A stretch of DNA of 64,000 bases from the NCBI RefSeq assembly GCF_050920415.1, contig NZ_CP169309.1, one strand, 5' to 3'. The position numbers were made by a program, and so were the translations under genes. The notes below the pieces were generated by a model, which was not told the origin of the DNA, did not search any database, and saw nothing but the letters and a program-made list of their open reading frames with translations. Positions 19,073 to 21,124 of this stretch are shown here, in pieces (position 1 is the stretch's first letter; every line of letters starts with the position of its first letter). Source of the stretch: Escherichia coli. Its GTDB lineage: Bacteria; Pseudomonadota; Gammaproteobacteria; Enterobacterales; Enterobacteriaceae.

Positions 19073-19256
19073 CTTAATCCAGTGCAGTGTCTTAGCTGAA
19101 TACAAGTCGCCAGGAGTATATGAATAAATCCCGGCAGCGGATAGCGTCAAGCCTGGCTTGCAGAAAAACTCGGATTAAACCTTATTTGTTGCAGCCCTGT
19201 GGCACAATGGTCAACATAATACCCTAACCCGACAACGCGAAAAAAAGAACTTTGCC

Positions 19257-20021
19257 ATGAAATTGAATATCCGCGCGCAAACTGCACAAAACCAGCACAA
19301 TAATTCTCCCATCGTTCTTGTCCATGGTCTGTTTGGCAGCCTCGACAACCTTGGCGTACTGGCTCGCGATCTGGTAAACGATCACAATATCATCCAGGTT
19401 GATATGCGTAACCACGGTCTTTCCCCGAGAGATCCGGTGATGAGTTACCCGGCGATGGCCCAGGATCTTGTTGACACTCTGGATGCACAGCAGATCGATA
19501 AGGCAACATTTATTGGACACTCAATGGGCGGTAAAGCGGTGATGGCACTGACTGCACTGGCCCCCGATCGCATCGATAAACTGGTGGCGATTGATATCGC
19601 GCCGGTCGACTATCACGTACGCCGTCATGATGAAATTTTCGCGGCTATCAACGCAGTCAGTGAATCCGACGCGCAAACTCGCCAGCAAGCAGCGGCAGTA
19701 ATGCGCCAGCATCTTAATGAAGAAGGGGTGATTCAGTTTCTGTTGAAATCTTTTGTTGACGGGGAGTGGCGCTTTAACGTGCCGGTATTGTGGGATCAGT
19801 ATCCGCATATTGTGGGTTGGGAGAAAATCCCGGCATGGGATCACCCTGCCCTGTTTATCCCAGGCGGCAATTCTCCGTATGTTAGCGAGCAGTATCGTGA
19901 TGATTTACTGACACAATTTCCACAGGCACGAGCGCATGTGATTGCTGGCGCGGGTCACTGGGTCCATGCTGAAAAACCGGATGCGGTATTACGCGCTATC
20001 CGTCGCTATCTCAATGATTAA
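19257..20021 (+). CDS. ybfF: YbfF esterase (alpha/beta hydrolase)
   Basis: 254 aa; GHSMGG nucleophile elbow. Confidence 0.9.
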   Translation: MKLNIRAQTAQNQHNNSPIVLVHGLFGSLDNLGVLARDLVNDHNIIQVDMRNHGLSPRDPVMSYPAMAQDLVDTLDAQQIDKATFIGHSMGGKAVMALTALAPDRIDKLVAIDIAPVDYHVRRHDEIFAAINAVSESDAQTRQQAAAVMRQHLNEEGVIQFLLKSFVDGEWRFNVPVLWDQYPHIVGWEKIPAWDHPALFIPGGNSPYVSEQYRDDLLTQFPQARAHVIAGAGHWVHAEKPDAVLRAIRRYLND

Positions 20022-20026
20022 CGTAA

Positions 20027-20042
20027 CTGATTAAAAACCCAG
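20027..20042 (+). promoter_or_regulatory. Putative LexA box upstream of ybfE
   Basis: CTGATTAAAAACCCAG fits CTG-N10-CAG; ybfE is remembered as a LexA-regulon member. Confidence 0.45.
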
Positions 20043-20160
20043 CGTCCGCGTCGCTTTCCGCGCGTGGGCGTTGGCGTGACTCATCGCGCTGATGTATTAT
20101 GGCGCGCTATCCATCCGGGCAGGCGCCTGGCTGATTGTTTCCCCCGAAGTCACCAAGATC

Positions 20161-20454
20161 ATGGCCAAAGAACAAACGGACCGTACGACATTAGATCTGT
20201 TCGCGCACGAGCGTCGACCGGGACGACCGAAAACTAATCCGCTTTCGCGCGATGAACAGCTGCGTATTAATAAACGCAACCAGCTAAAACGCGACAAAGT
20301 ACGTGGCCTTAAGCGTGTCGAACTGAAGCTAAACGCGGAAGCTGTCGAGGCGCTGAACGAGCTGGCGGAATCGCGCAATATGAGCCGTAGCGAACTGATC
20401 GAAGAGATGTTAATGCAGCAACTGGCGGCGCTGCGTAGTCAGGGCATCGTTTAA
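20161..20454 (+). CDS. ybfE: YbfE (LexA-regulated small protein; CopG/RHH-like C-terminus)
   Basis: [33 protein letters not shown]...; internal ATG chosen. Confidence 0.8.
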
Positions 20455-20593
20455 ATTTCCACTTTCATGTAGCACAGTGTGCAGTCCTGCTCGTTTGCTG
20501 ATTCCGCAAGACTGCCTGTTCTGCTATGATTGCCTTTATCCGTGGGCAATTTTCCACCCCCATTTCAATAAGTTTCAAGAGGTTATTTCACTC

Positions 20594-21124
20594 ATGGCTA
20601 TCACTGGCATCTTTTTCGGCAGCGACACCGGTAATACCGAAAATATCGCAAAAATGATTCAAAAACAGCTTGGTAAAGACGTTGCCGATGTCCATGACAT
20701 TGCAAAAAGCAGCAAAGAAGATCTGGAAGCATATGACATTCTGCTGCTGGGCATCCCAACCTGGTATTACGGCGAAGCGCAGTGTGACTGGGATGACTTC
20801 TTCCCGACTCTCGAAGAGATTGATTTCAATGGCAAACTGGTTGCGCTGTTTGGTTGTGGCGACCAGGAAGATTACGCTGAATACTTCTGTGACGCATTGG
20901 GCACCATCCGCGACATCATTGAACCGCGCGGTGCAACCATCGTTGGTCACTGGCCAACTGCGGGCTACCATTTCGAAGCATCAAAAGGTCTGGCAGATGA
21001 CGACCACTTTGTCGGTCTGGCTATCGACGAAGACCGTCAGCCGGAACTGACCGCTGAACGTGTAGAAAAATGGGTTAAACAGATTTCTGAAGAATTGCAT
21101 CTCGACGAAATTCTCAATGCCTGA
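20594..21124 (+). CDS. fldA: Flavodoxin 1
   Basis: [27 protein letters not shown]...; 176 aa. Confidence 0.95.

Follow-up and report, generated by a model that had tools for sequence, protein, structure and literature searches.

The LexA-type box CTG-N10-CAG upstream of ybfE is an already known site, first published in 2000, and on balance we favor the view that this LexA-like sequence is marginal or fortuitous, with little or no part in the regulation of ybfE. LexA occupancy of the box in vivo would then be low or absent, with no regulatory effect. The main competing explanation is that the box is a genuine LexA operator specific to Escherichia and Citrobacter, which makes ybfE SOS-inducible and acts upstream, from an unusual position, for instance through interference with the alpha-CTD or with the upstream DNA contacts of RNA polymerase; we consider this possible but doubtful.

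The 16-mer CTGATTAAAAACCCAG was read directly from the + strand of the window (the whole 64-kb stretch of E. coli DNA analysed here) at 20027-20042, exactly where the earlier note had placed a CTG-N10-CAG box. It forms the core of the LexA-type 20-mer AACTGATTAAAAACCCAGCG (20025-20044, + strand), the published ybfE SOS box. The upstream gene, ybfF, encodes an esterase (CDS 19257-20021, + strand, with its TAA at 20019-20021, according to the ORF list and the RefSeq annotation), and the box lies 5 nt after this stop codon, in agreement with its description as directly following ybfF. On the other side, ybfE (20161-20454, + strand) encodes a 97-residue ribbon-helix-helix protein of the CopG family (RefSeq annotation; Pfam RHH_1, E=1.7e-10). 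Its start maps by RefSeq to ATG 20161-20163, and the distance from box to ATG, claimed to be about 120 nt, was counted as 118 nt. Locally, the genes are arranged as pgm, seqA, ybfF, ybfE, fldA, uof, fur. A 1.4-kb stretch around the box was matched in 5,424 of 5,426 complete E. coli genomes. At 19200-20600 the window shows at least 99% identity to only 16 of the 5,424 genomes, with strains MFDS1022581 and N96 as best matches, and 95–99% identity to the others; it therefore belongs to a less commonly sequenced lineage.

In E. coli K-12 MG1655 the identical 20-mer is found at 712015-712034, which corresponds to its location in the ybfF-ybfE spacer of the window. The ybfF-ybfE spacers of the two strains differ at only three bases, none of which falls in the box; one of them, position 20024 (T in the window strain, C in K-12), is located 1 base outside the 20-mer. 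The same 16-mer is given as the ybfE LexA box, citing Fernandez de Henestrosa 2000 (PMC2585105), and the RefSeq product name for YbfE in E. coli genomes is “LexA regulated protein”, which together identify the site as one already known. In the curated K-12 record, YbfE is named only as a ribbon-helix-helix protein. The proposal of a LexA-type box is thus upheld with respect to its identity with a published site, and is weakened by the distance of the box from the promoter and by the poor conservation of its arms, as detailed below.

Motif strength was evaluated by means of a Lewis-type heterology index (HI), rebuilt from 20 LexA boxes in PMC3009722, where the outermost bases of 2 of the 20 reference 20-mers were filled in from outside this source. 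The symmetrised HI tracks the published values for 19 reference genes. The plain matrix gives the ybfE box an HI of 10.4 and the symmetrised one 12.0; the published value is about 11 (PMC11228462). Its CTG and CAG arms are exactly 10 bp apart, and its HI is below the working threshold of about 15, at the weak end of the range. Three other boxes with a single CTG-N10-CAG share this HI range, namely polB (13), dinB (9.4) and ftsK (9.2), and an HI of 10–12 is accordingly within the accepted range, which speaks in favor of an operator. The spacer departs from the expected T after the left CTG and the A/T alternation that follows (positions 6-7 = TA): position 6 is A, which is found in none of the 20 references, and position 7 is T, found in two, and together these positions contribute 5.5 of the 10.4 HI units. 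The box is therefore degenerate, as had been claimed. The earlier note had also named a high HI combined with a lack of SOS induction as the outcome that would speak against the box; with an HI of 10.4–12.0 and the expression data described below, the outcome is borderline on both counts. A half-site T at the position-15 equivalent leads to weaker LexA binding (Culyba et al., PMC5999292). Among known boxes, that of symE (yjiW), CTGATGATATATACAG, resembles the ybfE box in having the rare A after the left CTG (0 of 20 other references); the symE spacer is otherwise an alternating TA sequence near consensus, whereas the ybfE spacer consists of an A-tract followed by CC.

Within the 64-kb window the ybfE box ranks first by HI, and the next-best sites have HI values of at least 11.8 and each lack one arm. 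The chance expectation for an equally good site is 0.28–0.45 per 64 kb, or about 33 per genome, and 23% of Markov-1 random 64-kb windows hold such a site; given this chance rate, the sequence alone is without significance, and function cannot rest on the motif. The bare CTG-N10-CAG pattern was rejected as evidence, since it occurs 30 times in the window. Dinucleotide shuffles give an expectation of 12.9 occurrences, and none of the shuffles reached 30; the excess is probably due to CTG (Leu) and CAG (Gln) codons, both of them frequent, that share a reading frame, rather than to LexA sites.

Evidence from expression is divided. Fernandez de Henestrosa 2000 assigned ybfE to the LexA regulon, reportedly from Northern blots with lexA+, lexA(Def) and lexA(Ind-) strains. 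The gene is present in SOS gene tables, and the SOS regulon lists that include it, derived from Fernandez de Henestrosa 2000 and Courcelle 2001, argue for a functional operator. The same applies to a PybfE-GFP reporter that is UV-responsive, which its authors dropped as an outlier without a predicted sigma-70 promoter (PMC5999292). Against an operator, RNA-seq after AZT showed a 4-fold increase of ybfE for which the lexA dependence was 0.74, and ybfE expression is described there as not lexA-dependent; in the same data the lexA dependence was 3.1-fold for polB and 6.9-fold for dinB, and the AZT induction of ybfE had a 2.9-fold SspA dependence (PMC11228462). Ciprofloxacin likewise failed to induce ybfE in two studies, in which expression did not change significantly either over time in a bioreactor (PMC11002266) or in EHEC (PMC11125564). 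The mutagen MX did not induce ybfE in Salmonella. In Salmonella Typhimurium, nalidixic acid induces ybfE, yet an SOS box was not found (PMC8072944). The earlier description of ybfE as an SOS-inducible gene is thus backed by the SOS lists and the UV reporter, and contradicted by the lexA-independent response to AZT and by the missing response to ciprofloxacin and MX.

The position of the box relative to the ybfE promoter also bears on its function. A scan located a sigma-70 promoter on the + strand with a -35 hexamer TTGGCG at 20071-20076 and a -10 hexamer TATTAT at 20095-20100, the latter being TATGAT in most genera of the alignment. This combination, TTGGCG-18-TATTAT, is the sole sigma-70-like match on the + strand, agrees with the consensus at 9 of 12 positions, and is the ybfE RpoD-holoenzyme promoter listed by Shimada 2014 (PMC3946193). 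Its spacing is within 16–18 bp, it is bound by RpoD holoenzyme, and it is conserved, with CGTTGGC and TGATGTAT.ATGGCGCGCT as invariant promoter blocks across 33 Enterobacteriaceae genera. The operon ybfE-fldA-uof-fur begins at ybfE and has its own promoter (Conway 2014, PMC4161252). A GC-rich stretch, GGCGCGCT (20101-20108), directly follows the -10 hexamer and is invariant; it resembles the GC-rich discriminator of stringent or growth-rate-controlled promoters, and such a discriminator-like element would fit the reported shutoff of ybfE expression in stationary phase (PMC4161252).

From the promoter elements, we infer that transcription of ybfE starts near 20107. With this start, the 20-mer spans approximately -82 to -63 with its center near -72, and ends 26 nt 5′ of the -35 hexamer, so that it neither overlaps nor abuts the core promoter. 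At characterised operators, LexA represses by sterically excluding RNA polymerase. Because the ybfE box is centered near -72, LexA bound there could not occlude RNA polymerase, which counts against an operator. In this respect the box is unlike those that overlap a core promoter, including the other weak accepted SOS boxes (polB, dinB and ftsK). A second promoter over the box was sought on either strand and rejected; the scan gave no match, and by eye only poor -35/-10 combinations were seen. A 120-residue ORF starting at ATG 20092 (20092-20454, + strand), just upstream of the -10 hexamer, includes ybfE; it is unlikely that this ATG is the real start of ybfE, since it lies upstream of the inferred transcription start, and RefSeq uses ATG 20161.

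We analyzed the conservation of the box in 80 ybfE loci, retrieved as one genome per species. Almost all of them contain homologous sequence about 115 nt upstream of ybfE, but the bases kept there are not those that LexA requires. Every aligned genus has the left-arm T and G and the central AAAA, whereas the C of CTG and the whole right arm vary, the latter being CAG, CGG, CAT, CAA, GAG, GCC or GAC. Of 71 loci, 15 possess both arms, comprising all three from Escherichia, 11 of 12 from Citrobacter, and Yokenella, and in no others. In most of the Enterobacteriaceae genera sampled, the orthologous upstream region lacks one or both LexA arms. The 230 nt preceding ybfE in other genera contain no better LexA box at another position. 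CTG occurs in 65% and CAG in 31% of the 71 loci, and the observed 15 co-occurrences compare with 14.3 expected under independence; this chance-level association is evidence against an operator, as is the loss of the right arm in Salmonella arizonae, which has CAT, and in one Citrobacter youngae, which has CGG.

Within Escherichia, the picture is more favorable to an operator. E. coli K-12, O157, the E. coli species representative, a cryptic Escherichia species and E. albertii all carry the 20-mer unchanged, while the bases flanking it and the interior of the adjacent hairpin vary, although few substitutions were sampled. Together with the retention of both arms in most Citrobacter, this invariance would be compatible with lineage-specific selection.

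The invariant bases of the box coincide with other features. The left arm contains a TGA at 20028-20030 (+ strand), identified by stop-codon mapping, which is in frame with ybfF and whose T and G are the invariant bases. In 49 of 74 Enterobacteriaceae loci, ybfF actually ends at this TGA, and in 16 more the stop is within 4 nt of it. In E. coli, ybfF ends 9 nt (three codons) before the TGA owing to an acquired in-frame TAA. Early stop codons, TAA or TAG, at this 9-nt distance are seen in ybfF of both E. coli and E. albertii, with the ancestral TGA still in frame. Within 20019-20037, the invariant TGATTAA also offers a second stop codon, TAA, which begins 4 nt later and lies in a different frame. 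Between the arms of the box is an AAAA at 20033-20036 (+ strand), part of an A-run at 20033-20037 and corresponding to the invariant columns A48-A51 of alignment A1 and A16-A19 of alignment A2. Across genera, this core stands at a constant, gapless distance from the -35 hexamer.

These observations could also mean that another factor or signal acts on the invariant core, TGATTAAAAA, and that its likeness to a LexA site is incidental. Candidates are an upstream activator or a curved-DNA element serving the ybfE promoter, or else a translation-termination context of ybfF. The invariance of T, G and AAAA at a gapless distance from the -35 hexamer, with LexA arms that vary, argues for such a target, as does the use of the TGA as ybfF stop codon in the majority of loci, with a TAA at +4 giving a tandem stop. 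No known motif was matched by the core, however, and the A-tract, at -70 to -77, lies upstream of where the classical UP element is positioned, at -40 to -60. We regard a dedicated target of this kind as fairly unlikely.

The right arm of the box coincides with a GC-rich RNA hairpin on the + strand directly after ybfF (20039-20074). The base of its 5′ side is CCAG (20039-20042), which contains the right arm of the box, and the base of its 3′ side is the TTGG of the -35 hexamer. Pairs were counted in a gapless alignment of 47 distinct sequences, with partner columns slid as a control. The helix is paired in 75.5% of cells compared with 27–51% in the slid controls, compensatory changes occur at three inner pairs, and at two pairs within the box arm A/G changes keep A-U or G-U pairing. 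Folds of individual loci gave z<-2 in 46 of 71 cases, and the hairpin is conserved across the majority of Enterobacteriaceae genera. The RNAalifold consensus of the hairpin showed essentially no structure (-0.18 kcal/mol), and since RNAalifold missed the helix and the case rests on pair counts and per-sequence folds, the hairpin is moderately supported. An Rfam search of 19800-20700 gave no match at E≤1.

The hairpin resembles those 3′-end stem-loops and intrinsic terminators which reach into the promoter of the following gene, in that it is GC-rich, follows the stop codon, and has its 3′ arm in the -35 hexamer. It differs from intrinsic terminators in that its strong + strand stem is not followed by a U-tract, whereas the minus strand has a T-run and a weak stem. 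An intrinsic terminator on the minus strand, with the T5 run of TTTTTAATCA after the stem, was rejected (-16 kcal/mol, z=+0.44); the stem is weak on this strand because the G-U pairs of E. coli become C-A mismatches, which makes the hairpin of E. coli + strand-specific. The hairpin may serve as a stabiliser of the ybfF 3′ end, or may couple ybfF read-through to the ybfE promoter.

Returning to a marginal or fortuitous LexA-like site, we propose that a weak LexA-type palindrome arose upstream of ybfE from unrelated constraints: (i) the TG of the left arm would be kept as part of the ancestral ybfF stop codon TGA, (ii) the central AAAA would belong to an invariant A-tract, and (iii) the CAG of the right arm would form the base of the + strand hairpin, where its partner is the TTGG that is invariant in the -35 hexamer. 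Placed at about -82 to -63, such a palindrome would be too distant to exclude RNA polymerase. The conserved bases would then be explained without LexA, which is a further point against an operator. The complete form of this explanation, in which the palindrome is an accident of stop codon, A-tract and hairpin, the response of ybfE to DNA damage is LexA-independent, and “LexA regulated protein” is a misnomer, is a plausible proposal that we put forward tentatively, with slightly less than even confidence.

It is highly improbable that LexA at the box forms a roadblock to ybfF read-through into ybfE-fldA, such that SOS induction raises ybfE via read-through: the box is located 5 nt past the ybfF stop codon, and the lack of a + strand U-tract after the hairpin may render ybfF termination inefficient, but a site with an HI of 10–12 would make a poor roadblock, and LexA roadblocking is not, to our knowledge, an established mechanism. 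The start of the operon at ybfE with its own promoter (Conway 2014, PMC4161252) and the lexA-independent expression of ybfE (PMC11228462) also disagree with a roadblock.

Beyond the site itself, only gene annotation is affected. Thousands of genomes have inherited the name “LexA regulated protein”; it may be unwarranted, especially in genera without the box, and would be a misnomer if the box is no operator. If the box is non-functional, ybfE falls outside the core SOS regulon, and its induction by AZT needs another explanation.

Finally, a second hairpin was found in the inferred 5′ UTR of ybfE as a terminator-like match (20115-20140, + strand), in which CCGGGC pairs with GCCTGG and is followed by the U-rich CTGATTGTTT. 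Its pairing amounts to 75%, compared with at most 57% when partner columns are slid, and its covariation is not significant, as 68 of 500 shuffles matched the observed score. This leader hairpin may be an attenuator. Beyond CTGATTGTTT, the ybfE leader contains TTGTTTCCCC, which is widely conserved.
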